Assembly: GCA_011050465.1 (NCBI GenBank)
Contig: DRFQ01000009.1
Location: 64,334-128,333 of the forward strand
Direction: 5' to 3'
Source of the DNA: Candidatus Nealsonbacteria bacterium
GTDB lineage: Bacteria; Patescibacteriota; Minisyncoccia; Minisyncoccales; RBG-13-36-15
DNA: 64,000 bases
The translations under genes and the position numbers were made by a program. Numbering within the stretch: position 1 is the first letter of the stretch; every line of letters begins with the position of its first letter. The notes beneath the pieces are model-generated. The model was not told the origin of the DNA. It searched no databases and saw only the letters and a program-made list of their open reading frames with translations. Below are positions 639 through 61,721 of the stretch, piece after piece.

Positions 639-728
639 CACCAGAGCGAAGCTCGGTGCTGGACCAGTCCCGAACTGAACTTCGTTCTAGTTCGGGGCTT
701 TATGCGGGGTAAATTTTTTGGTAGAATC
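639..728 (+). repeat. Family B intergenic cassette, copy 1 (hairpin 669-696, then ttttttggtagaat)
   Basis: Near-identical to 15091-15168 and 18091-18180. It ends in a TGnTAGAAT extended -10-like box 25 nt before the ATG at 754. Confidence 0.8.
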
Positions 729-753
729 AAATAAAAGCCTCGAAAAAAAACTA

Positions 754-3700
754 ATGCAGCTAGACTTAAAAAAACTAAACAAAGAGCAAAAAGAGGCGGT
801 GATCCACAGCAAGGGGCCGCTTTTGATTGTGGCAGGATCTGGAACCGGGAAAACAACGGTGATTACCCAAAGGATTGCTTATTTGATTGAAAAGGGGATG
901 GCCAAACCGGAAGAAATTTTAGCTGTTACCTTTACTGAGAAAGCGGCCGAAGAAATGGAGGAAAGGATTGATAGGCTTTTACCATACGGTTACGTTGATT
1001 TATGGATTTTAACTTTCCATTCTTTTTGCGAAAGAGTTTTAAGAGACCACGCTCTGGACATTGGTCTACCGGCCGATTTCAAGATTTTGGAACCGACGGC
1101 GGGATGGCTTTTGGTGCGTCAGAACCTGGACAAGTTTGAACTTGATTATTACAAGCCCCTGGGCAATCCGACTAAATTCATTCAGGCTTTAATTTCTCAT
1201 TTTTCCCATTGCAAAGATCAGGAGATTTACCCCGAAGATTATTTGGAATACGCCGATAAATTAAAAACCAGAGACGATGTGCCGGAAACTCAAGAAACAG
1301 AAAGGATAAAGGAAGTGGCCAATGCCTTCCACGTTTATCAAAGATTGCTTCTGGAAAATAGCTCTTTAGACTTCGGAGATTTGATAAATTACTGTCTGAA
1401 GCTATTTAAAAAAAGGCCTTTGATTCTGAAAAAATACAGGGAAAAATTCAAATACATTTTAGTTGACGAATTTCAGGATACTAATTGGTCACAGTATGAA
1501 TTGATAAAGATTTTGGCGGCGCCCAAAAACAATCTGACCGTCTGCGCTGATGACGACCAGGCGATTTACCGCTGGAGGGGGGCGTCTTTTGCCAATATTA
1601 TCCAATTTATAAAGGATTTCCCGAAAGCAAAACAAATATCTTTGGTTAAAAATTACAGGTCTGCCCAGAATATCCTGGATTTGGCCTACAAATTTATAAA
1701 AGCCAACGATCCCGATCGGCTTGAATACGTGAATAAAATCAATAAAAAATTAATTGCAGACAATAAGGGGAAAGGAATAATTGAGCATATCCACGCCAAA
1801 AGTCTGGACGAGGAAGCCGGGAAAACAATCAGGAAAATCCTGGAAGTTTTAAAAAAAGATAAAGAGATAAATTACAATGATATTGCTATTTTAGTTAGGG
1901 CGAACAACGCGGCAAATTCTTTCACAAAAGCCCTGGAAAGAGCGGGTCTGCCCTATCAATTTTTGGCTTCAAAAGGGCTTTATGCAAAGCCCTGTGTTCT
2001 GGACGTTATTTCCTATTTCAAACTTTTGGACAATTACCACGAAAGCCCGGCGGTTTACAGGGTTCTGAATCTGCCCTTTTTGGGAATTCCCTACGATGAT
2101 ATAGTGAAGCTCACTCAATATGGCCACCGCAAAACAAAATCTCTTTACGAGGTGATGGAAGAGCTCCCTTTGGTTTCCGGGATATCTAAAAAAACGCAGA
2201 GAAAAACCGCTTTTATTCTGAGCTTGATTAAGAAACACATCGCCCTTTCGCGGGAGAAAGCGGTTTCGGAAATGCTGATAGCTTTTTTGAAAGATTCCGG
2301 CTATTTGAAATATCTGGTGGATAAAGACGATAAAGAGCAGATTGATATTCTCAACCAGTTCTACAAAAGAATAAAGAATTTTGAAGAAGCCGCGACAGAG
2401 CCAAATTTAAAGAATTTCATGGAAGAAATAACTTTTGAAATAGAATCGGGAGAAGAGGGGAAGCTTGAGTTTGATCCCAAACAGGGTCCGGATATGATAA
2501 AAGTGATGACCATTCACGGAGCCAAAGGTTTGGAGTTCAAATATGTCTTTTTGGTCAATATGGTGGACAAAAGATTCCCGACCATTGAAAGGAAAGATTT
2601 AATTGAGCTTCCCGAAGAATTGATTAAAGACATCAAGCCCGAGGGAGATGTCCATTTGCAGGAAGAAAGGAGGATTTGTTACGTGGCGATGACTAGGGCC
2701 AAAAAAGAGCTTTATTTCACTTCAGCCGAGGATTACGGCCTGGTGAGGAAAAAGAGATTGTCGCGATTTTTGATAGAAATGGGCTATAAAGATAAATCCG
2801 AAACCGACCGGACGCGAAACGGACTCCCCGGAGGGTTGCATTCGCCAGATCGAGCGAAGCGAGGGACTCCCCGGAGGGTTGCATCCAAAAACAGTTTGCT
2901 TGCGCCATCTTTCATTAAAACTGCCCCTTTCGCCGAAGTAGCTCTCGCCTCGCCGAAGCCTTCGGCGAAGCGCGGGTCGGCTACGAAGGGTAAAAGAAAA
3001 ACAGGATCAGACTATCTTCCCGGACATTTTTCTTTTTCCCAACTGGCCGCTTTTGAAAAATGTCCCCTGCAGTACAAATTAAATTTTATTTTAAAAGTTC
3101 CCATCAAAGGCAAGGCTGTGTTCTCGTTCGGAAAAACAATGCACAACACTTTTTATAATTTTTTGAAATACGTAAACGAAAACAATAAAAACAATCAAGG
3201 CAATTTGTTTGGTTTTGCCGCCTCTTCCGCGAAAGAGGCGAGCCTCGCCCTTTCGGGGCGGGAAGATAGGTTGAGATTAAATGATCTGATGGAAATTTAC
3301 GAAAAAAACTGGATTGATGAATGGTACGAAAATAAAAATCAAAAAGAAGAATACTACAAGCTCGGCAAGAAAATAGTTAAAGATTTTTACGAAGAATTTG
3401 TAAAAAATCCGCCGAAGATTTTAAAAATTGATAATACCCTTGCTTTAGAAATGCCGTTTAATTTGAAAATAGGAGGGCATACCTTATACGGCGTAATAGA
3501 TAGAATTGATGAAACGGAAGGGGGAGTGGCGATTATTGATTACAAAACAGGAAATTCGAAAGAAAAATTGGTCTTGAGCGACAAGGAACAATTATTAATT
3601 TATCAAATAGCGGTTGAGGAGATTTTTAAAATAAAACCGAAAGAACTAATTTATTATTATTTGAACGACGGCAAGAAAGCGTCTTTCCTGGGTTCGGATA

Positions 3701-3834
3701 AGGAAAAAGGTCGTCTTAAAGAAAAAATCATTCAGGAGATCGAAGAAATAAAAAAGAGCGATTTTAAGGCAACGCCCGGCTGGCAATGCGGATTTTGCGA
3801 CTTTAAAGATATCTGTGACTTCGCAGAAAGGTAA
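754..3834 (+). CDS. UvrD/PcrA-type superfamily 1 helicase fused to a C-terminal PD-(D/E)XK nuclease with a Cas4/AddB-like four-Cys cluster
   Basis: Walker A GSGTGKTT, DEFQDT, the VKNYRS and TIHGAKGLEF helicase motifs. C-terminal IIDYKTG plus Cys residues (EKCP ... WQCGFCDFKDIC). The start is moved to ATG 754 because the track start at 718 overlaps the -10-like box. Confidence 0.85.
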   Translation: MQLDLKKLNKEQKEAVIHSKGPLLIVAGSGTGKTTVITQRIAYLIEKGMAKPEEILAVTFTEKAAEEMEERIDRLLPYGYVDLWILTFHSFCERVLRDHALDIGLPADFKILEPTAGWLLVRQNLDKFELDYYKPLGNPTKFIQALISHFSHCKDQEIYPEDYLEYADKLKTRDDVPETQETERIKEVANAFHVYQRLLLENSSLDFGDLINYCLKLFKKRPLILKKYREKFKYILVDEFQDTNWSQYELIKILAAPKNNLTVCADDDQAIYRWRGASFANIIQFIKDFPKAKQISLVKNYRSAQNILDLAYKFIKANDPDRLEYVNKINKKLIADNKGKGIIEHIHAKSLDEEAGKTIRKILEVLKKDKEINYNDIAILVRANNAANSFTKALERAGLPYQFLASKGLYAKPCVLDVISYFKLLDNYHESPAVYRVLNLPFLGIPYDDIVKLTQYGHRKTKSLYEVMEELPLVSGISKKTQRKTAFILSLIKKHIALSREKAVSEMLIAFLKDSGYLKYLVDKDDKEQIDILNQFYKRIKNFEEAATEPNLKNFMEEITFEIESGEEGKLEFDPKQGPDMIKVMTIHGAKGLEFKYVFLVNMVDKRFPTIERKDLIELPEELIKDIKPEGDVHLQEERRICYVAMTRAKKELYFTSAEDYGLVRKKRLSRFLIEMGYKDKSETDRTRNGLPGGLHSPDRAKRGTPRRVASKNSLLAPSFIKTAPFAEVALASPKPSAKRGSATKGKRKTGSDYLPGHFSFSQLAAFEKCPLQYKLNFILKVPIKGKAVFSFGKTMHNTFYNFLKYVNENNKNNQGNLFGFAASSAKEASLALSGREDRLRLNDLMEIYEKNWIDEWYENKNQKEEYYKLGKKIVKDFYEEFVKNPPKILKIDNTLALEMPFNLKIGGHTLYGVIDRIDETEGGVAIIDYKTGNSKEKLVLSDKEQLLIYQIAVEEIFKIKPKELIYYYLNDGKKASFLGSDKEKGRLKEKIIQEIEEIKKSDFKATPGWQCGFCDFKDICDFAER
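2798..2990 (+). repeat. GC-rich repeat block embedded in frame in the helicase-nuclease linker
   Basis: A 21-nt perfect direct repeat ggactccccggagggttgcat lies at 2821-2841 and 2864-2884. The palindrome cgccgaagccttcggcg is also present. GC is far above the flanking coding sequence. Confidence 0.7.
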
Positions 3835-14485: not shown

Positions 14486-15091
14486 ATGAATAAAATCTAT
14501 ATTTTTTTTATATTAATAATTTTAATTTTGGGGGGTTATTTTTTCATTGTCCAAAATAGGGGAGAGGAATCCATGGACCGTAATATTATAACTCCGCTCG
14601 ACACTAATATGATTGCGACAATGCAGACTAATTTTGGTGAGATTAAATTAGAGCTTTTCTCGTCTGATGCGCCAAAAACAGTCGAGAATTTCATTAAGCT
14701 TGCTGAGTCAGGTTTTTATGATGGCGTAAAATTCCACCGAGTGATTAAAGGGTTTATGATTCAAGGTGGCGATCCTCTCAGTAAAGACAATGCTTTGAAA
14801 GATAGATGGGGAACAGGGGGGCCCGGCTATACTTTCTCAGATGAAATCCACTCAAAGAACCGTAATGTTGTAGGCACCATTTCCATGGCCAATGCTGGAC
14901 CAAACACAAATGGCAGTCAGTTTTTTATCAATACTAATGATAATAACAGTCTCGATAACAAGCATACTGTTTTCGGTAAAGTAATAACAGGGATTGATAT
15001 CGTTGAAAATATTGAAAATGTAGCCACAGAAGGTCCGGACCGTCCGGTCGATGATGTAATTATCGAAAGTATTAAGATAACAAGCAACTAA
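14486..15091 (+). CDS. ppiB: Cyclophilin-type peptidyl-prolyl cis-trans isomerase with an N-terminal membrane anchor
   Basis: FHRVIKGFMIQGGDP, SMANAGPNTNGSQFFI and HTVFGKV motifs. N-terminal hydrophobic helix. Confidence 0.9.
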   Translation: MNKIYIFFILIILILGGYFFIVQNRGEESMDRNIITPLDTNMIATMQTNFGEIKLELFSSDAPKTVENFIKLAESGFYDGVKFHRVIKGFMIQGGDPLSKDNALKDRWGTGGPGYTFSDEIHSKNRNVVGTISMANAGPNTNGSQFFINTNDNNSLDNKHTVFGKVITGIDIVENIENVATEGPDRPVDDVIIESIKITSN

Positions 15092-15168
15092 GCACGGTGC
15101 TGAACCAGCCCCGAACTAGAACGAAGTTCAGTTCGGGGCTTTATGCGGGGTAAAGTTTTTGGTAAGAT
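15091..15168 (+). repeat. Family B intergenic cassette, copy 2 (hairpin 15109-15138 is inverted relative to copy 1)
   Basis: The flanks are colinear with copies 1 and 3. The central hairpin is the exact reverse complement of 669-696. The copy ends in tttttggtaagat, 23 nt before the ATG at 15192. Confidence 0.8.
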
Positions 15169-15191
15169 AGAAAGCAAAATTTTATTCTAAT

Positions 15192-17466: not shown

Positions 17467-17512
17467 GCCTATGGGCAAGGCGGACGGATACAGTAACTTT
17501 ATTCAAGGTCCC

Positions 17513-17548
17513 TAGTCAGCGTAGTATTGAGGCCGACCGAGAGGCCTA
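17513..17548 (+). repeat. Family D repeat copy (ctagtcagcgYagtatYgaggccgaccgagaggcc)
   Basis: Second copy at 23226-23262. Contains an aggcc/ggcct hairpin. Confidence 0.6.
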
Positions 17549-18090: not shown

Positions 18091-18180
18091 GCACCAGAGC
18101 TGAGCACGGTGCTGGACCAGTCCCGAACTGAACTTCGTTCTAATCCGGGGCTTTATGCGGGGTAAATTTTTTGGTATAAT
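18091..18180 (+). repeat. Family B intergenic cassette, copy 3 (ends in ttttttggtataat)
   Basis: Near-identical to 639-728. The right arm of the hairpin is mutated (aatccgggg). A TGGTATAAT extended -10 lies 32 nt before the ATG at 18213. Confidence 0.8.
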
Positions 18181-18212
18181 GCAATAATGAAGCAAACAAG
18201 ATAAAAACAAAT

Positions 18213-18800: not shown

Positions 18801-18988
18801 TTTCAGATTGATGAACTATTTCCAATCCCTATTTGAGCGCGGTCTACTCCGAGTTTACCTGTGGTGAGCTTGTGGAATCCATCGGAGGGTTCGGAGAGAC
18901 TGAGCCGGGTCAGTCGACATTGAATCAATCTAGAGCCACCGCCCGAGAGCTGTCAGCCTTGGGTTTTGCTATTCTGATTTTAATAAAT

Positions 18989-19061
18989 AAGAGGATGGCT
19001 AAGGCCAAACCTCTTTTTTGTTTGTCTTGAGGCGGAAAGAATAGTAAAATAGTAGAAAGAT
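18989..19061 (+). promoter_or_regulatory. Family E terminator-plus-promoter module, copy 1
   Basis: Hairpin aagagg..cctctt plus a T-run, then TTGTCT (19022-19027), a 17-nt spacer and TAAAAT (19045-19050). Repeated at 31890-31963; the promoter half also occurs at 20678-20720. Confidence 0.6.
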
Positions 19062-21884: not shown

Positions 21885-22885
21885 ATACACACTTTTGGCG
21901 GTTTGGTTAGTTAATAATTTTAAGCATTTGATTCGGCGTCTTTCCGTTAAGTCCGCAATGTTTTGTGTCGTTGTATTCCATATTCCACAATCTTAATTTG
22001 TATCTTAGATCTTCGAAAGATTTAAATTCAGTTTCATCATAGAATTTCTCTTGATCTTCTCTGTGAGATCTCTCTACAAAACTGTTCTGCCGGGGTTTGC
22101 CCGGGTCAATCAAATGGTGGGGTATGCCCAATTCCTGGCAGAGTATATCGAAGGGGTGCAGCCTCGGGTTTAAAGGGTCTGTGCTTTTATTATATCCTGT
22201 ATACCTGTTGGTGAAACAAGAAGTATTATCTGTCTTAATTGCTTTAATTTCAAAGTTGGCAATGGCTATTAGTTCTCTCAAAAACCTTATCGCGCTGAGA
22301 TTGGAAGCATCCTCGTATGCTTGCAAATACCTCCACCTTGAGCCGCAATCTATGGCTGTAAATTGATAATATCTCTGCCCTTTTATCTTATCTGGAACAT
22401 ATTTTACATCAATCTTTACCAGCTCACCCTTCTTTAAAGGAATTCTAACATATTTGTATTTAATCTTCCTTGTCCTGTATTTTCTGGTCAGTCCTTCATT
22501 TTTAATTATCTTCTGGATAGTTTGGTAATGTATGTTTATTCCTTCTTCCCCTAAGTCTCACTGCACTTTCAAGGCGCATTGCTTTTTCTCTTTTCTCAAT
22601 TCAATAATTCTTTCCTTTATCCTGATGGGCGTTTCTTTGGGATTTGTTTTGGGCCTTGTAGATTTCGGTTCCAATCCCTCCTCTCCGTATATCTTGTAGT
22701 TATGCAGCCACCTTTCTAATGTTCTTTTAGCGGTAGGGACACATTTTGGCGGCGTTCGTAATGCTTACTTCTTTGTTCAAAATGGGCAATATCCATCTTA
22801 ACCGTTTCTCTTTAATTGTTTTGGCCATATTTACACACATATACCGAAACTATATCAGCTTCGGTAAAACCCGCCATATGTGTAT
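21885..22885 (-). mobile_element. Decayed IS481-family-like insertion sequence (about 1 kb)
   Basis: Imperfect terminal inverted repeats: atacacacttttggcggttt (21885-21904) versus the reverse complement of aaacccgccatatgtgtat (22867-22885). They enclose an rve-type transposase reading frame. Confidence 0.6.
21907..22828 (-). pseudogene. IS481-like DDE (rve) transposase, disrupted
   Basis: The N-terminal HTH part MAKTIKEKRLRWILPILNKEVSITNAAKMCPY is followed by a frameshift. An in-frame TGA follows (ALKVQ*DLGEEG). The frame then continues YYQFTAIDCGSRWRYLQAYEDAS into the 139-aa ORF, which carries IKTDN and VERSHRED. Confidence 0.7.
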
Positions 22886-23225: not shown

Positions 23226-23262
23226 CTAGTCAGCGCAGTATCGAGGCCGACCGAGAGGCCTT
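23226..23262 (+). repeat. Family D repeat copy
   Basis: tagtcagcgcagtatcgaggccgaccgagaggcc matches 17513-17548. Confidence 0.6.
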
Positions 23263-31853: not shown

Positions 31854-31889
31854 AGACTTAGTTTTTCTTATTGGCGGATTTGTATAGAT

Positions 31890-31963
31890 AAGAGGATGGC
31901 TAAGGCCAAACCTCTTTTTTGTTTGTCTTGAAACGGGAATAGTAGTAAAATAGTAGAAAGATT
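31890..31963 (+). promoter_or_regulatory. Family E terminator-plus-promoter module, copy 2
   Basis: Same hairpin and T-run as 18989. TTGTCT (31923-31928), a 17-nt spacer, TAAAAT (31946-31951), with the leader agtagaaagatt abutting the ATG at 31964. Confidence 0.6.
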
Positions 31964-49289: not shown

Positions 49290-50324
49290 ATGGGCTTTAA
49301 AATTAGAGAAATAAATAATAAAAAAGTCTGGGAAGAATTTTTATCGAGGACTAATGAAAAGACCTTTCTACAATCTTGGAACTGGGGGGAATTTCAGAAA
49401 GTAACGGGAAATAAGATTTGGAGATTGGGGGTTTATACAGAAGATAATTTATTGGGCTTAACTTTGGTTATTAAGATTACAGCTAGGAGGGGAGTTTTTT
49501 TGTTTTGTCCGCACGGGCCAGTTATCAAAGAACAAAAAACAGAGAACAGAAAACAAATTTTAAGAGAGTTTATCAATGTATTGAAAGAAATTGCCGGGGA
49601 AGAAGGGGCGAGCTTTATCAGAATTGCTCCGATTTGGGAAAGAAACCGAGAAAACATTAAAATCTTCAAAACTCTGGGATTCAGGGAAGCCCCTATTCAT
49701 ATGCATCCTGAGTTAACCTGGATGTTAGATATTACGCCGGACGAAGAGCAACTTTTAATGCAAATGCGCAAAACCACTCGTTATTTAATTCGCCAGGCCC
49801 AGAAGAACCCAGATGTTATAATTAGCAACAGTCAGAAGTTAGACAATGTTGAAAAATTTAATGAACTTTATCAAATAACAGTTGATCGACACAATTTTAT
49901 TCCTTTTTCGTTAGACTACCTCAAAAATGAAGTCTCAGCATTTTTATCAGATAATCAGGTAGTAATATTTTTAGGTAGATATAAAGAAGAAATATTAGGT
50001 TCTGCTATTGTAATCTATTGGCAGGGAACTGCTTTCTATCATCAAGGAGCTTCATCTTTAAAATATCCGAAAATTCCCGTATCTTACCTTTTACAATGGG
50101 AAGCCATTAAAGAAGCCAAAAAAAGAGGTTGCAAAATTTATAACTTCTGGGGGATTGCTTCAACTGATTCTTCAAGGCATCCCTGGGCGGGTCTTACTTT
50201 ATTTAAGAAAGGCTTTGGCGGATATGAAAAAGAATATGTTAAAACTCAGGATTTACCACTATCGAAAAAATATTGGCTAAATTATTTTGTCGAGAAATTA
50301 AGAAAAACCAGAAGGGGATTATAA
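49290..50324 (+). CDS. FemAB/FemX-family peptidoglycan branch aminoacyl-transferase
   Basis: FLQSWNWGEFQ, RKTTRYLIRQAQK and YHQGAS, plus the C-terminal L..FK.GFGG. Confidence 0.8.
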   Translation: MGFKIREINNKKVWEEFLSRTNEKTFLQSWNWGEFQKVTGNKIWRLGVYTEDNLLGLTLVIKITARRGVFLFCPHGPVIKEQKTENRKQILREFINVLKEIAGEEGASFIRIAPIWERNRENIKIFKTLGFREAPIHMHPELTWMLDITPDEEQLLMQMRKTTRYLIRQAQKNPDVIISNSQKLDNVEKFNELYQITVDRHNFIPFSLDYLKNEVSAFLSDNQVVIFLGRYKEEILGSAIVIYWQGTAFYHQGASSLKYPKIPVSYLLQWEAIKEAKKRGCKIYNFWGIASTDSSRHPWAGLTLFKKGFGGYEKEYVKTQDLPLSKKYWLNYFVEKLRKTRRGL

Positions 50325-50401: not shown

Positions 50402-51238
50402 ATGATTACCAGGAGATTTAGAAAACCTTACCGGATTAGAAAGAAAAAATCGATTTTACGCAATCGATTTTTTTGGCTAGGCATTATAATCATTATTATT
50501 GCCGGAGCTATTTTTTATTTTTTATTTTTTTCAAAGACTTTCCAGATTAAACAAACTATTGTTACCGGCGAAGAAAAGGTCTCAGAAGAAAGTCTTAAAT
50601 TATTAATAGAAAAAAGGTTAGAAAATAGAATATTGTTTTTTAAGACAAGAAGCCTTTTCTTGGTTAACTTAAATGGAATAAAAGATGATATTTTAGATAA
50701 CTTTCCCCAGATAGCAGAAGTTAAAGTCAGTCAAAGTTTCCCTGATACTATTAATATTATTGTAGTAGAAAGATTGGATTTGGCAATTTGGTGCCAAACA
50801 GAACATTGTTTTTTACTTGATAGAAAAGGAATAATTTTTGACTTAGTTAGAAATGACATTTCTACTGAATCTGAGAAGGTTCCGGGCGAAATTGTTTTGA
50901 CAAAGATTATAGACAGAAGAGATATAAGTTCTTTTAATTTGGGAGATCAAATCATTGAAGAAGATGTTTTAGTATCGATTCTCGACATTAAAAAACACAT
51001 AAAAGGAAATCTTGAAATAGAAATAGAAGAGTTTGTTATTCTTAATCCAGGAAGGTTGAACGTTAAAACCGCCGAAGGCTGGGAGATTTATTTTGATCTT
51101 CAAAAGGATATCTCCTGGCAGCTGACAAAATTAAATTTGGTTTTAAAAGAAGAAATCCCCCCGGAAGAAAGAGGGAATTTAGATTATATCGAGCTAAGGT
51201 TCACCAGGGTCTACTATAAATATAAAGCAGGAGATTAA
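50402..51238 (+). CDS. ftsQ: Cell division protein FtsQ/DivIB
   Basis: Basic N-terminus, TM helix, POTRA (I..I.V.G......I), and position after the mur/fem genes. Confidence 0.75.
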   Translation: MITRRFRKPYRIRKKKSILRNRFFWLGIIIIIIAGAIFYFLFFSKTFQIKQTIVTGEEKVSEESLKLLIEKRLENRILFFKTRSLFLVNLNGIKDDILDNFPQIAEVKVSQSFPDTINIIVVERLDLAIWCQTEHCFLLDRKGIIFDLVRNDISTESEKVPGEIVLTKIIDRRDISSFNLGDQIIEEDVLVSILDIKKHIKGNLEIEIEEFVILNPGRLNVKTAEGWEIYFDLQKDISWQLTKLNLVLKEEIPPEERGNLDYIELRFTRVYYKYKAGD

Positions 51239-53118
51239 TCAATATAATATACGAAAATTGAGTAGCCGATTTTTTTTATAAGTTTGTATTTATCAAGCCA
51301 GAGATAATATCCTACAGGTTGGTCAAAGCCATAAGCTGGTTGGCCTTTTCCTCCCTGCAAAAGAGTAACAGATACCGCCAGATAGCTTCCCTTGGGAAGC
51401 TTTTTTGGATTCCACCTCCCCTGCCAGGGCCTAAATCTTTTGCCCAAATAATACGTTGTATCTCCTCCACCGAAATAATCAACGTAAATTTCATTAATTC
51501 CTTCTTTTTCTATCCACGTTTTTAATCTCTTTAAATCCTGGCCCCAGTCTAGATTGGAATCAACAGCATAAGTATGGCCATTATTTGGCCCGCCGACTGT
51601 TTCATTGAAATAAGAAAGAAAATGAGGATAAGTTTTTATAACCGAAACAGCCTGCCAGAGAATTAAAATAATTAAAATTGAGTATTTAATAAGTTTGAAC
51701 AGGCGATTTCTTTCTGTTTTTAATAAAACAATGATCCCGCCGCCGACCAGAATATAAACAAAAGGAAAGGTGGGAAGCAGGTGTCGGACGCCAATGTTTA
51801 AGTTGCTGCTTAAACTTGTTCCCCAATATATCAGAAGCCAAACCAAGAAAACAAATTCAGTGAAGTGATCTTTTATCCAATTTCTAAGACGGGAAAGAGT
51901 TTGCCTCCAGGACATTCGGCTGAGCCCTTCGGCAGTGAGCTCAGGACGAACCTGCTCAGTCGAAGCCAAAAGCCTCTTTATTGAGTAAGCGACGAAAAGC
52001 AAAGTTATCAAAGTTAAAATATGAAAAGCCAAGGGTTCCTTAATAATATAAACAATAGGGAAGTATTGAATCCAGCCTGCAGCTGAAATTTCTCCTAAAA
52101 AGTAAGTAGTATTACCGCCGGCCGCCCTTCCTGTAGCCATAAAAACACCTAAAAAATAATGACTCCAAGGCTTTAGAATCGGACGTTCTGCCATCCAACC
52201 GACAATTTCTGCGGGAGTCCCCAGTTTCAAGGGAAGATTAGGCAAAATATTATTAAGGGGATGGTCTTTTAAAAACTCTTGAGCATAATCTTCTATCTTT
52301 TCTGTGGGTAAGTTTAAAACATGATATTGGTATACAGGCCAGATTAAAAGAAAAGCAATGATAAAAACCAGAATAATCTTTACACCATAAGAGAAAAATT
52401 GTTTAATTTTTTCTTTCTCAACTTTAAATATTATCCAAAGAAAGAAGATAATGATAAAAAGAGGAAAGAGAAGGATTAAAGAGAATTTTAAAAGTTGAGC
52501 TATTGCAAAAGCAATACCAGCTAAAATAATATTCTTATAAGTAGGGGTTTTTAAGAATTTTAGAAAGTAGTAAATACCCAGAACTGCTCCGGCCGCCGCG
52601 GCGACATCTGTGGTGACCAATCTGCCGTGAGCGAGAAAATTAGGTGAGAAAACAAACAGAAACAAGGACAGAAGCGCAGCCTTGTTTCCAAAAAGTTTTC
52701 TTGTCCAGAGGAAGATAAACCATCCTAAAAATATCAATAATAAAATCATGGGCAGCCTCGACCAGAATAAGATTTGGTCAGGATCGTTGCCTGAACGGTA
52801 TAAAAATTGATAGGCAAAATCGAATTGATGCCACCAGACAGGTTTCTCGTCTTGAATCCAAGATGAATCATCTTTTGGGAAATTAAGATTTAGAAACAGA
52901 AGCGGGATAGCAGCAAGGTCTTTGATTAATGGGGGATGCTCCGGATTAAGCCTCATATCCTTTTGAGTTAGATAGGAATAGCCAGCTGAGACATGGGCAG
53001 TTTCGTCAAAAGTAAAAGAATCCTCGAGTATACTGAAAATAGCCATCAAGAACATAGATAGAAGCAATATTCCAGCGATAATATAGGTCAAGTCATTTGG
53101 AGACCTCAATTTTGACAT
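51235..53118 (-). CDS. GT39/PMT_2-type phospholipid-carrier-dependent glycosyltransferase
   Basis: FDETAHVSAGYSY ... NPEHPPLIKDL loop-1 motif in a polytopic membrane protein. Confidence 0.8.
   Translation of the reverse strand: MSKLRSPNDLTYIIAGILLLSMFLMAIFSILEDSFTFDETAHVSAGYSYLTQKDMRLNPEHPPLIKDLAAIPLLFLNLNFPKDDSSWIQDEKPVWWHQFDFAYQFLYRSGNDPDQILFWSRLPMILLLIFLGWFIFLWTRKLFGNKAALLSLFLFVFSPNFLAHGRLVTTDVAAAAGAVLGIYYFLKFLKTPTYKNIILAGIAFAIAQLLKFSLILLFPLFIIIFFLWIIFKVEKEKIKQFFSYGVKIILVFIIAFLLIWPVYQYHVLNLPTEKIEDYAQEFLKDHPLNNILPNLPLKLGTPAEIVGWMAERPILKPWSHYFLGVFMATGRAAGGNTTYFLGEISAAGWIQYFPIVYIIKEPLAFHILTLITLLFVAYSIKRLLASTEQVRPELTAEGLSRMSWRQTLSRLRNWIKDHFTEFVFLVWLLIYWGTSLSSNLNIGVRHLLPTFPFVYILVGGGIIVLLKTERNRLFKLIKYSILIILILWQAVSVIKTYPHFLSYFNETVGGPNNGHTYAVDSNLDWGQDLKRLKTWIEKEGINEIYVDYFGGGDTTYYLGKRFRPWQGRWNPKKLPKGSYLAVSVTLLQGGKGQPAYGFDQPVGYYLWLDKYKLIKKIGYSIFVYYID
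51907..51967 (+). repeat. Family A GC-rich element, in-frame intragenic copy
   Basis: The 61 nt are identical to 61325-61385. On the minus strand they encode ASTEQVRPELTAEGLSRMSW within the GT39 protein. Confidence 0.85.
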
Positions 53119-57744: not shown

Positions 57745-57768
57745 CGCTCAGCAACGAAGTCTCAAAGT

Positions 57769-57830
57769 ACCGACCCTCAAAATCCCAGGACATTCGGCTG
57801 AGCTCAGTCGAAGCCCGAGATTTTGGGGTC
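57769..57830 (+). repeat. Family A GC-rich element, short intergenic variant
   Basis: accgaccctcaaaatcccaggacattcggCTGAGCTCAGtcgaagcccgagatt. Stem gaccctcaaaatc/gattttggggtc. Confidence 0.8.
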
Positions 57831-57957
57831 TGCGTTCTCGGCTTCTCGTCCGCCTTCGGCGGAACCATGCCGATGAGCCTGCGAAAGCTACTTTAAAACT
57901 TGTTGCCTCGCTTAGAGATTATTCGTATATGCGTAATAATTCGTAATTCGTAGGGAT

Positions 57958-60050: not shown

Positions 60051-61277
60051 ATGCAAAAGCGAATATTTTTTGGTTTTTTAATTTTGGCTTCATTGACAAG
60101 TTTTAGCTTTGGAATTTTAGTTGGCAGGACAACAGTCGAACCAAAGATAATTTTTGGAGTCATAAACCCTGAGGAAGGAAAATCTCAAGAAGTCGATTTC
60201 TCTCTTTTTTGGAGGGTTTGGGCAAGTATTCAAGAAAAATTTGTTGACGAAGAAAAATTTGACTATCAAGTAATGCTTTACGGTGCTATTTCCGGAATGG
60301 TAAATGCCTTGGATGATCCATATACTGTTTTTTTTAATCCCGAAGAGGCCAAAAAGTTCAAAGAAGATGTTTCTGGAAAATTTGAAGGAGTCGGCATGGA
60401 GGTCGGAATAAGAAAAAACGAATTAACAGTTATTGCTCCTTTAGAAGGAACACCGGCTCAAAAAGCGGGACTAAGGGCTGGAGATAAAATTATAAAAATT
60501 GGAGACACGATTACAGGTGAGCTGACAATTGATGAAGCGGTTAGTTTCATTAGAGGGCCAAAAGGAACAGAAGTAACTTTAACAATTTTTCGAGAAGATT
60601 GGGGAATACCAAGAGAAATTACGTTAATTAGAGAAGTAATTGAAATACCTTCATTAAAATGGGAATTACTCGCCTCGCCAGGCGAAGCCGGTGGGAAAGA
60701 ACCCGATATAGCCTATATAAAGCTTTATCATTTTCATGAAAAGGCTGGAGTTGATTTCAAAAAAGCAGCTTTTGACATTTTAGAAAGCCCAGCCAAAAAA
60801 ATAATTTTAGATTTAAGAAATAATCCAGGAGGTTATTTAGAGATATCTCAAGATATTGCTGGTTGGTTTTTAGAAAGAGGCCAAGTTGTGGTCATTGAAG
60901 ATTTTGGCGAAGGCAAAGAGAAAAAAGACTACAAAGCCGGGGGGAATGAACTATTCTTAGAATATCCCATGGTAATTTTAATCAATCAGGGATCGGCTTC
61001 AGCCTCTGAAATTTTAGCTGCTGCTCTTCGAGATAACCGTGGCATTAAAATCATTGGAGAAACTTCTTTTGGAAAAGGCTCTGTCCAGGAATTAGAAGAT
61101 TTACCAGAAGGATCATCTTTAAAGGTTACAATAGCCAAATGGTTAACTCCAAAAGGTGATATTTTGACTGATGTTGGTTTGGAACCAGACATCAAAATAG
61201 ATATGACCGAGAAAGATTACGAAGAAGAGAAAGACCCTCAGCTTGAAAAAGCTATAGAGATAATTGAACAATTATAA
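60051..61277 (+). CDS. ctpA: S41 carboxy-terminal processing peptidase with a PDZ domain
   Basis: PDZ region (GTPAQKAGLRAGDKII), catalytic GSASASEI, and LRNNPGG. Confidence 0.9.
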   Translation: MQKRIFFGFLILASLTSFSFGILVGRTTVEPKIIFGVINPEEGKSQEVDFSLFWRVWASIQEKFVDEEKFDYQVMLYGAISGMVNALDDPYTVFFNPEEAKKFKEDVSGKFEGVGMEVGIRKNELTVIAPLEGTPAQKAGLRAGDKIIKIGDTITGELTIDEAVSFIRGPKGTEVTLTIFREDWGIPREITLIREVIEIPSLKWELLASPGEAGGKEPDIAYIKLYHFHEKAGVDFKKAAFDILESPAKKIILDLRNNPGGYLEISQDIAGWFLERGQVVVIEDFGEGKEKKDYKAGGNELFLEYPMVILINQGSASASEILAAALRDNRGIKIIGETSFGKGSVQELEDLPEGSSLKVTIAKWLTPKGDILTDVGLEPDIKIDMTEKDYEEEKDPQLEKAIEIIEQL

Positions 61278-61308
61278 AGTTTATCGTTCGGTTGCCGAGC
61301 CGCAAATC

Positions 61309-61393
61309 ACCGACCCTCAAAATCCCAGGACATTCGGCTGAGCCCTTCGGCAGTGAGCTCAGGACGAACCTGCTCAGTCGAAGCCCGAGATTT
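61309..61393 (+). repeat. Family A GC-rich element, long intergenic variant
   Basis: Its ends match 57769-57822, with 30 extra nt between CTGAGC and TCAGTCGA. The core is identical to 51907-51967. Confidence 0.85.
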
Positions 61394-61445
61394 ACAAACC
61401 GGTCGCTCAGCTCCCTGTAATTGCTGAGCAATTAAGCATAGGGTT

Positions 61446-61721
61446 ATGAGAAAAAGAGTTATTATTTTAGTATCAGGGTTAGTACAAGGAATATTTTATC
61501 GATCTAATACTCTGGAAAAGGCTAAAGAGTTAAATTTGACAGGTTGGGTGAAAAATGAGTTTTCAAGTTCTGTGAAAATTGTGGCCGAAGGGGAAGAAGA
61601 AAATTTAGAAAAATTAATTGAATGGACAAAACAGGGCCCCGCTCTTGCGAAGGTTGATAAAATTGAGGTAGAATGGGAAAGAGACAGGGGAAAATTTAAG
61701 GATTTCGAAATTAGATATTGA
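61446..61721 (+). CDS. acyP: Acylphosphatase
   Basis: 91 aa with VSGLVQGIFYR and GWVKN motifs. Confidence 0.85.
   Translation: MRKRVIILVSGLVQGIFYRSNTLEKAKELNLTGWVKNEFSSSVKIVAEGEEENLEKLIEWTKQGPALAKVDKIEVEWERDRGKFKDFEIRY

Follow-up and report, generated by a model that had tools for sequence, protein, structure and literature searches.

A short palindromic element in frame within a GT39 glycosyltransferase gene of a Candidatus Nealsonbacteria genome

How does one GC-rich sequence come to lie both between two genes and, without breaking the reading frame, inside a third? The question is raised by a 64,000-nucleotide stretch of Candidatus Nealsonbacteria DNA (GenBank assembly GCA_011050465.1, contig DRFQ01000009.1; hereafter the window, to which positions refer unless a locus is named). 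A 61-nt sequence, CCAGGACATTCGGCTGAGCCCTTCGGCAGTGAGCTCAGGACGAACCTGCTCAGTCGAAGCC, occurs at exactly two places in the window, 51907-51967 and 61325-61385, both on the plus strand and with 0 mismatches; the number of matches expected in shuffled sequence was 0. At ~60% G+C in a window of 36% G+C, the element is conspicuous. The first copy lies within an intact minus-strand gene (51235-53118) encoding a 627-aa GT39/PMT_2-type (GT-C) membrane glycosyltransferase (Pfam PMT_2 and PMT; HDZ54540.1, Candidatus Nealsonbacteria), and the second lies in the spacer between ctp (60051-61277) and acyP (61446-61721). An earlier note, made from the sequence alone, had reported this identity and the open frame of the first copy, and both were borne out by exact matching and by the reading of the open reading frame (ORF). 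It had gone on to propose a recent, in-frame insertion of a mobile palindromic element. Empty sites, homologues without the segment and an excision that restores the ORF support that proposal, and we regard a mobile-element insertion into the GT39 gene as very probable.

Insertion into the GT39 gene and anatomy of the element

The extra segment of the GT39 protein is read without a stop as ...SIKRL-LASTEQVRPELTAEGLSRMS-WRQ.... It was absent from 23/23 aligned GT39 homologues, which share the motif R-P/S-F-W at the insertion point, and from loci L001-L005. The homologues include one at 92-95% identity and with conserved synteny, which reads SIKRPFWRQ. In the alignment with orthologues that the earlier note had proposed, the segment is a lineage-specific loop insertion. 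Excision of 51911-51967 in silico gave a 608-aa ORF colinear with the orthologue and identical to it at 581 of 608 residues. The excised product reads SIKRLFWRQ, with the reconstructed pre-insertion codons AGG CTT TT^C TGG AGG (the caret marks the junction). The net gain is 19 residues, because one Phe codon was split and 20 residues stand in its place.

An actual empty site was available for the spacer copy. A close relative with a 98% identical Ctp protein (L061/L062) carries ...CTCAAAATCCCAG^CGAGATT... (also written ...AAAATCCCAG^CGAGATT...), and the filled counterpart in the window is ...CCCAG[GACATT...57 nt...GAAGCC]CGAGATTT.... This empty site and the GT39 excision together define an inserted unit of 57 nt preceded by a CCAG that was already there. 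The palindromic unit of the earlier note therefore stands but its length of 61 nt does not, the first four bases being pre-existing target. A 61-nt insertion accompanied by a 4-nt deletion, or a duplication of TGG, had also been considered at the GT39 junction and was dropped on the same two grounds.

The GT39 copy (copy A) thus occupies 51911-51967 on the plus strand, antisense to the gene, in which it is read as (L)LASTEQVRPELTAEGLSRMS. Its CCAG (51907-51910, plus strand) falls on the coding strand within the codons TT^C TGG (Phe-Trp); the orthologue has CCAA at this position (TTT TGG). The identical spacer copy (copy B) occupies 61329-61385, with its CCAG at 61325-61328, both on the plus strand. 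Neither duplication nor deletion of the target accompanies copies A and B.

Six contigs, drawn from several samples and assemblies (JGI 3300005663, including contigs of 258 kb and 362 kb, and NCBI GCA_011049515.1), carry the GT39 gene with its insert. A second strain from another project (ERZ23486227), 99.2-99.9% identical, carries unchanged all three copies of the element that the window holds. 'Recent' accordingly means later than the split from the ~5%-diverged relative and earlier than the divergence of the two 99%-identical strains.

Of the 5 differences between the GT39 genes of the two insert-bearing strains, 4 are synonymous and 1 is non-synonymous. The ratio of non-synonymous to synonymous change (pN/pS) is 0.07, with a binomial P of ~0.01 against neutrality, which indicates that the gene has been under constraint since the insertion. 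An AlphaFold model of the protein (mean predicted local distance difference test score (pLDDT) 78, predicted template modelling score 0.83) shows the insert as a low-confidence loop (pLDDT ~50) between helices 363-385 and 404-417. By the positive-inside rule this Lys/Arg-rich loop is probably cytoplasmic; hydropathy, scanned in a simple way, proved too coarse a guide to its side of the membrane. Distant Patescibacteria homologues (P0016, P0017, P0026, P0082, and P0087) carry unrelated insertions of 5-45 residues in the same loop (alignment columns 407-495), and the loop is a hot spot for tolerated insertions.

The third copy (copy C) shows what the element is built from. It consists of CCAG plus 27 nt, 31 nt in all (57785-57815), and lacks the central 30 nt of the other two; the element proper lies at 57789-57815 and its CCAG at 57785-57788, on the plus strand of the dnaK-dnaJ spacer. 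This short copy defines the basic unit as the 27-mer GACA-TTCGGCTGAGCTCAGTCGAA-GCC. Tails of 4 nt (5') and 3 nt (3') flank a 20-nt palindrome that is near-perfect, with a single G.T irregularity. The variant TTCGGTTGAGCTCAATCGAA has a compensatory change from C-G to T-A with the G.T pair kept. The additional 30 nt of the long form sit in the hairpin loop (51926-51955, plus strand, in copy A, with a placement ambiguous by 2 nt) and align to the 27-mer with a score equaled in 1/2000 shuffles; this apical module thus belongs, in diverged form, to the same family of hairpins.

Copy B itself occupies the loop of an older host hairpin module (ACCGACCCTCAAAATC...GAGATTT; 61298-61400, plus strand), which the relative has without the element. 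The 57-nt composite is the same in the GT39 gene and in the spacer, whereas the older hairpin around the spacer copy did not travel with it; the ends of the 27-mer therefore delimit the mobile unit, whatever its loop holds. Copy C lies in a host hairpin of the same type, within a ~145-nt composite of nested GC-rich hairpins (57745-57890) in the 213-nt dnaK-dnaJ spacer. The corresponding spacer of the close relative (L061:1211-1280) is 70 nt long, AT-rich, and devoid of the entire composite. With their flanks, the hairpins of copies B and C are predicted to fold stably (z -3 to -3.8). In the ctp-acyP spacer of the relative (L061:4605-4756 / L062:3986-4137), a ~45-nt module (CAAAYCGGTCGCTYARCTCCCTGTAATTGCTGAGCAATTAAR) is tandemly duplicated; the window has it once.

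At gathering thresholds tRNA-Lys was the sole Rfam match, so that the element belongs to no known RNA family. A fuzzy search of ~400 kb of fetched loci found no diverged copies beyond those known, and all copies were single. Minus-strand matches in this search were rejected as the palindrome matching itself.

Occurrence in other genomes and inside other genes

Exact-match scans with the 31-mer (CCAG plus the 27-mer) located the element in two contexts in another Patescibacteria metagenome-assembled genome (MAG), H41-bin092_1, in five Pirellulales-labelled MAGs, and in ~30 metagenome contigs of 44-54% G+C. Chance 19-mer matches in the GC-rich contigs L015, L018, L019/40/51, L022, L029-31, L038, L049, and L050/59 were discarded, as similarity ends at the 19-mer. 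Across at least 8 flanking contexts in Nealsonbacteria, H41-bin092_1, the Pirellulales-labelled MAGs, the metagenome contigs, and one viral contig, the ends of the 27/31-mer are constant.

The planctomycete-like contigs usually have the 31-mer in the loop of a hairpin starting GT[AG]GCACGGGC, which is the published signature of GTAG-type repetitive extragenic palindromes (REPs) (PMC3733652). Both states of this hairpin were found: the empty state CAYGGGC-TTCCAG-CCYGTG in 8-9 instances and the filled state ...TTCCAG(27 nt)CCCGTG in ~23 instances at partly redundant loci. Three independent empty/filled pairs (the GT39 gene, the ctp-acyP spacer, and the REP hairpin) thus place the insertion 3' of CCAG without duplication.

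A scan of viral contigs that used the 27-mer only gave a single match (L067; IMGVR_UViG_3300012926_000010), preceded by CGAG and again at the center of a flanking palindrome. The apical 30-mer was not found in the viral contigs scanned. All other collection scans started from CCAG and were biased toward it, and the target is probably best written C(C/G)AG. The viral copy lies in a non-coding stretch (L067:13028-13430) of repeated ~45-nt units, each with GGCTCGCTC, which possibly form an origin or an iteron-like region.

The element can be accommodated in coding sequence. The insert lengths of 27, 30, and 57 nt are all multiples of three and 4/6 frames are free of stops, so that insertion into a gene just adds 9 or 19 residues. 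In other genomes the element was found deep within long ORFs and in three different reading frames. Among the Pirellulales-labelled MAGs, a copy in a valine-tRNA ligase (ValRS) gene is in frame, and the alignment of the protein to 1GAX is contiguous around a 56-residue stretch without counterpart. A copy in an NAD synthetase (NadE) gene, likewise from these MAGs, is in frame in the interdomain linker. Further copies within ORFs occur in an FG-GAP-like protein and directly after a lipoprotein signal peptide.

A valine-tRNA ligase ORF of 1280 aa lies on the planctomycete-like contig L053 (5278-9120, minus strand) and has a ~280-aa in-frame insert. This insert comprises a translated REP hairpin, a domain of the REP-associated transposase family RAYT (NF047646, E 4e-19; HUH motif NHVHVV), and a tandem array of five 27-nt hairpin repeats (HGQDARATD x5). 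The RAYT domain is in frame within valS with translated REPs on either side, and in effect the reading frame of an essential gene runs straight through a REPtron.

Two other genes of the window, and a third in the second strain, have in-frame insertions of this general kind. The helicase-nuclease gene (UvrD/PD-(D/E)XK; ORF 718-3834, plus strand) has lineage-specific insertions of 22 and 20 aa in a linker relative to orthologues at 86-90% identity. Both (2818-2883 and 2923-2982, plus strand) are GC-rich palindromic DNA, the first containing GGACTCCCCGGAGGGTTGCAT twice and the second being a nested palindrome with GTAGC...GCTAC. Several orthologues (P0134, P0140, P0146, P0152, P0177, and others) are ~370 aa longer and contain intein domains (PF14890); the gene thus accommodates inteins in certain lineages and, in that of the window, palindromic inserts. 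A third GC island of this gene, at 3211-3275, lies in a variable region.

The ctp gene has a 27-nt in-frame insertion (~60669-60695, plus strand) that encodes the 9 residues LASPGEAGG and forms a GC-rich hairpin with CCAG in its loop. Its distribution is patchy: it is present in Ctp orthologues at 98, 95, 79, and 69% identity and absent from others at 85, 78, 76, 73, and 69%. FemAB is 57 nt longer in the second strain, in frame (363 versus 344 aa; window ~49529-49599 versus L060:13520-13647), and the added stretch includes, as its reverse complement, the 21-mer that is repeated in the helicase insert. About 70 nt on either side of it are strongly diverged between the strains, which suggests a recombination patch.

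Other intergenic repeat families were noted in the window. A ~97-nt GC-rich repeat with a 34-nt palindrome (AGTCCCGAACTGAAC...GTTCGGGGCT) occurs in both orientations at 638-734, 15079-15175, and 18091-18187; a 36-nt GC-rich repeat lies at 17512-17547 and 23226-23261; and an 86-nt repeat with a promoter-like AT-rich end lies at 18976-19061 and 31877-31962. Part of the seryl-tRNA synthetase gene (~650 nt) is missing from the scaffold of the second strain (L006:17751-18505 versus L060:17808-17911), either because the scaffold has a gap there or because the sequence was truly lost. Another gap between L006 and L060, at 9.6 kb, consists of scaffold Ns and was set aside as having no biological meaning.

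Mode of movement and alternative explanations

The best explanation of the whole, to which we assign a probability of about 0.6, is a non-autonomous mini-element with precise C(C/G)AG-directed insertion and Y1-type mobilization in trans. The 57 nt in the GT39 gene would be a copy of this very small element. A diverged 30-nt family member would have entered the loop of a 27-nt unit, and the 57-nt composite would then have moved as one piece, to be found now in the ctp-acyP spacer and in the GT39 gene. The insertions lie directly 3' of an existing C(C/G)AG, with target bases neither duplicated nor lost, and usually in the loop of another hairpin. The GT39 insertion would have landed in a basic inter-helix loop and been tolerated there, in a gene under purifying selection.

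Insertion at exact boundaries, the target rule, absence from relatives, presence in several genomes, and constraint after insertion were all observed; the enzyme is the step that we infer. It would be an HUH/Y1 single-strand transposase, either a TnpA of the IS200/IS605 type or a RAYT, acting in trans by 'peel-and-paste' transposition. This assignment is tentative and stands at somewhat less than even odds. It is suggested by a strand-specific hairpin with a stem irregularity, by insertion 3' of a specific tetranucleotide that is kept in the left flank, and by the lack of target duplication. These features are hallmarks of IS200/IS605 single-strand transposition, to which the REP/RAYT system is near (PMC5027513, PMC8266576). 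The element-bearing contig L053 also encodes a RAYT domain, and the host hairpins on it start GT[AG]G. In the window the CCAG strand is the plus strand in 3/3 copies, and the GC skew of that strand is positive throughout; this placement fits a preference for the lagging-strand template, although n=3 is too small to weigh.

Several observations count against this explanation. Neither the 64 kb of the window nor the other Patescibacteria loci yielded a Y1/HUH gene. When 30 further ORFs of the window were scanned with Pfam, the result was housekeeping genes and one rve_3 fragment with no Y1 or HNH candidates; as a tblastn query, the RAYT segment of L053 matched nothing but itself, either in the window or in any of the loci. 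The element has a single hairpin, whereas the ends of IS200/IS605 elements carry two different ones, and it lacks the GTAG tag that RAYTs need (PMC8266576). The target rule is drawn from three empty/filled pairs, and the sole copy found without a bias toward CCAG follows CGAG. The evidence from orientation is limited to the three window copies. Many filled REPs of the planctomycete-like contigs may have spread as passengers of the REPs and not by independent insertions. Finally, translation of the insert, including the peptide spanning LLASTEQVRPELTAEGLSR, is inferred.

A more far-reaching version of the same explanation is possible, although we doubt it. The 27-nt CCAG-targeting hairpin would then be a single-strand transposon of a class not described before, pared down to a single hairpin, that moves horizontally between phyla (Patescibacteria, Planctomycetota, possibly via viruses) and whose length (27, 30, or 57 nt) and open frames have been selected for survival in coding genes. 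If true, it would be a general cross-phylum source of short insertions in protein loops, including those of the essential genes for ValRS and NadE.

The alternative that survives best, while still unlikely, is an element that is mobile by a non-HUH route, such as a loop-targeting nuclease/ligase, a phage-borne system, or an RNA intermediate. The single hairpin, the missing GTAG, the lack of a nearby Y1 gene, and the copy in a viral contig would all suit such a route, and sequence identity across phyla suggests a horizontally moving agent. Nevertheless, nothing points positively to another class of enzyme, and every resolved feature is compatible with Y1 chemistry.

Copying without any dedicated enzyme is less probable again, and we consider it quite unlikely. 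Template switching during replication, or else gene conversion, could have carried the hairpin from the ctp-acyP spacer to the GT39 gene with CCAG as microhomology: hairpins promote template switching, the shared flank is just these 4 nt, and there is no transposase in the window. However, the right boundary (...GAAGCC) has no homology to the target and yet falls at the same base in every context and phylum, which fits defined ends better than accidental switching.

It is very unlikely that the copies have been kept for their usefulness, whether as RNA stem-loops that stabilize or punctuate transcripts in spacers or as a functional loop of GT39. Copies B and C do lie in sense orientation directly downstream of ctp and dnaK with stable folds, and REPs affect mRNA stability (PMC3733652). 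Against such a role, the element has no Rfam match, the hairpins are not followed by a T-run (a role as intrinsic terminator was rejected on this ground), and the GT39 copy is antisense to the mRNA. In addition, the core is read in three frames in different proteins, which argues against a conserved peptide function.

Still less probable is a classical miniature inverted-repeat transposable element (MITE) mobilized by a DDE transposase, for example by an IS3-like element. An integrase-core fragment of this type is present: the 139-aa ORF at 21907-22326 (minus strand) has an rve_3 domain and appears to be a truncated DDE transposase, the sole transposase-like gene in the window. The unit, however, ends in GACA and GCC and so has no terminal inverted repeats, no target-site duplication is seen at the three resolved sites, and 27 nt is far below the size of a MITE.

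Two explanations can be dismissed. Loop length in GT39 does vary through unrelated insertions in several distant homologues, but the notion that the 19-20 residues are ancestral and were deleted in relatives, the spacer copy being a gene-derived fragment, founders on the 23 homologues, the closest included, that lack the residues and share R-P/S-F-W, on the insertion of the same 57 nt into a spacer whose empty state exists in a relative, and on the 27-nt core in other phyla and unrelated contexts. A chimeric or mis-joined contig, in which the element would lie outside the real GT39 gene, might be suspected because mis-joins can arise at repeats and copies A and B are identical; it is refuted by the unbroken GT39 coding sequence on either flank, which runs colinear with that of the orthologue, and by recovery of the same 627-aa protein across samples and assemblies, in a separate NCBI MAG, and in the 99%-identical strain of another project.

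Relation to known mobile palindromes and implications

According to the summaries of Ogata et al. (2000, 2002) in PMC10969869 and PMC3733652, Rickettsia palindromic elements (RPEs) are about 100-150 bp long, have a CGTC tag, and occur in Rickettsia only. Like the present element, they are palindromic selfish DNA, found in frame in functional, often essential genes in which an extra surface segment is translated, with intergenic copies in the same genome. In-frame insertion into functional ORFs was indeed observed here, in GT39 and, in other genomes, in ValRS and NadE. The size differs, in that an RPE is a long palindrome with a conserved peptide whereas the element is 27 nt long (57 nt when nested) with a core read in three frames. 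In place of a CGTC tag, the element ends in GACA... and ...GCC and is flanked by CCAG. Its occurrence in Patescibacteria, in Pirellulales-labelled MAGs, and in a viral contig also sets it apart from the Rickettsia-confined RPEs. The likeness to RPEs is thus behavioral only. REPs inside genes outside Rickettsia have already been published (Di Nocera 2013, PMC3733652), so that residence in genes is not unique to Rickettsia. The comparison with RPEs in the earlier note accordingly holds for in-frame insertion.

REPs share features of the element's structure. They too are imperfect palindromes of 20-40 nt that form a stem-loop; a conserved tetranucleotide lies 5' of it, and strand specificity comes from an irregularity in the stem (PMC3733652; Corneloup 2021, PMC8266576). 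REPs are also nested in other palindromes and found in genes for replication, repair, and aminoacyl-tRNA synthetases, and in planctomycete-like contigs the element occupies the loops of true GT[AG]G REPs and lies beside a RAYT domain. In contrast to the tetranucleotide of REPs, CCAG belongs to the target and not to the element, which has neither a GTAG nor a CGTC tag: its 5' tail is GACA, preceded by the target CCAG (CGAG in the viral contig). Moreover, the element does not form the inverted pairs known as bacterial interspersed mosaic elements (BIME) or REP doublets forming hairpins (REPIN), and there is no RAYT in the window.

As with IS200/IS605 elements (PMC5027513), the left end inserts 3' of a specific tetranucleotide, which the flank keeps, no target duplication arises, and an irregular hairpin is the likely recognition structure. 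The strand of the three window copies, too few to weigh, fits that expected for a lagging-strand template. The element differs in having one 20-nt hairpin with tails of 3-4 nt, where those elements have two distinct subterminal hairpins tens of nt from the cleavage sites. Classical MITEs have the terminal inverted repeats and target-site duplication that the element lacks. The cyanobacterial small dispersed repeats (SDRs) of Elhai et al. (2008) are reportedly mobile repeats of ~21-27 nt that nest in each other and in larger repeats, sometimes in genes. The nesting habit, with a 30-mer in the 27-mer and the 27-mer in REPs and other hairpins, would be common to both; sequence and phylum differ.

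The searched literature on the Candidate Phyla Radiation (CPR) and Patescibacteria contained no paper on such elements, in keeping with the earlier view that they are not described in CPR-type genomes. The element, 27 nt long and compatible with coding sequence, enters after CCAG and is common to different phyla; it is a new variant among known mobile palindromes. Its empty and filled sites, exact to the base pair, mean that in-frame colonization of genes by palindromic selfish DNA occurs in reduced CPR genomes, and the same 27-nt unit does likewise in a distant phylum, so that the Rickettsia-style habit extends well beyond Rickettsia. The 27-nt unit and its 4-nt target provide a small, defined substrate for the enzymes that move single hairpins, HUH/Y1 or other, and the identity across phyla makes the horizontal spread of mini-elements directly testable. 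For annotation, GC-rich inserts of 9-20 residues in AT-rich genomes may be mobile DNA. For the Patescibacteria, the element offers a concrete source for the numerous short lineage-specific loop insertions in their proteins.

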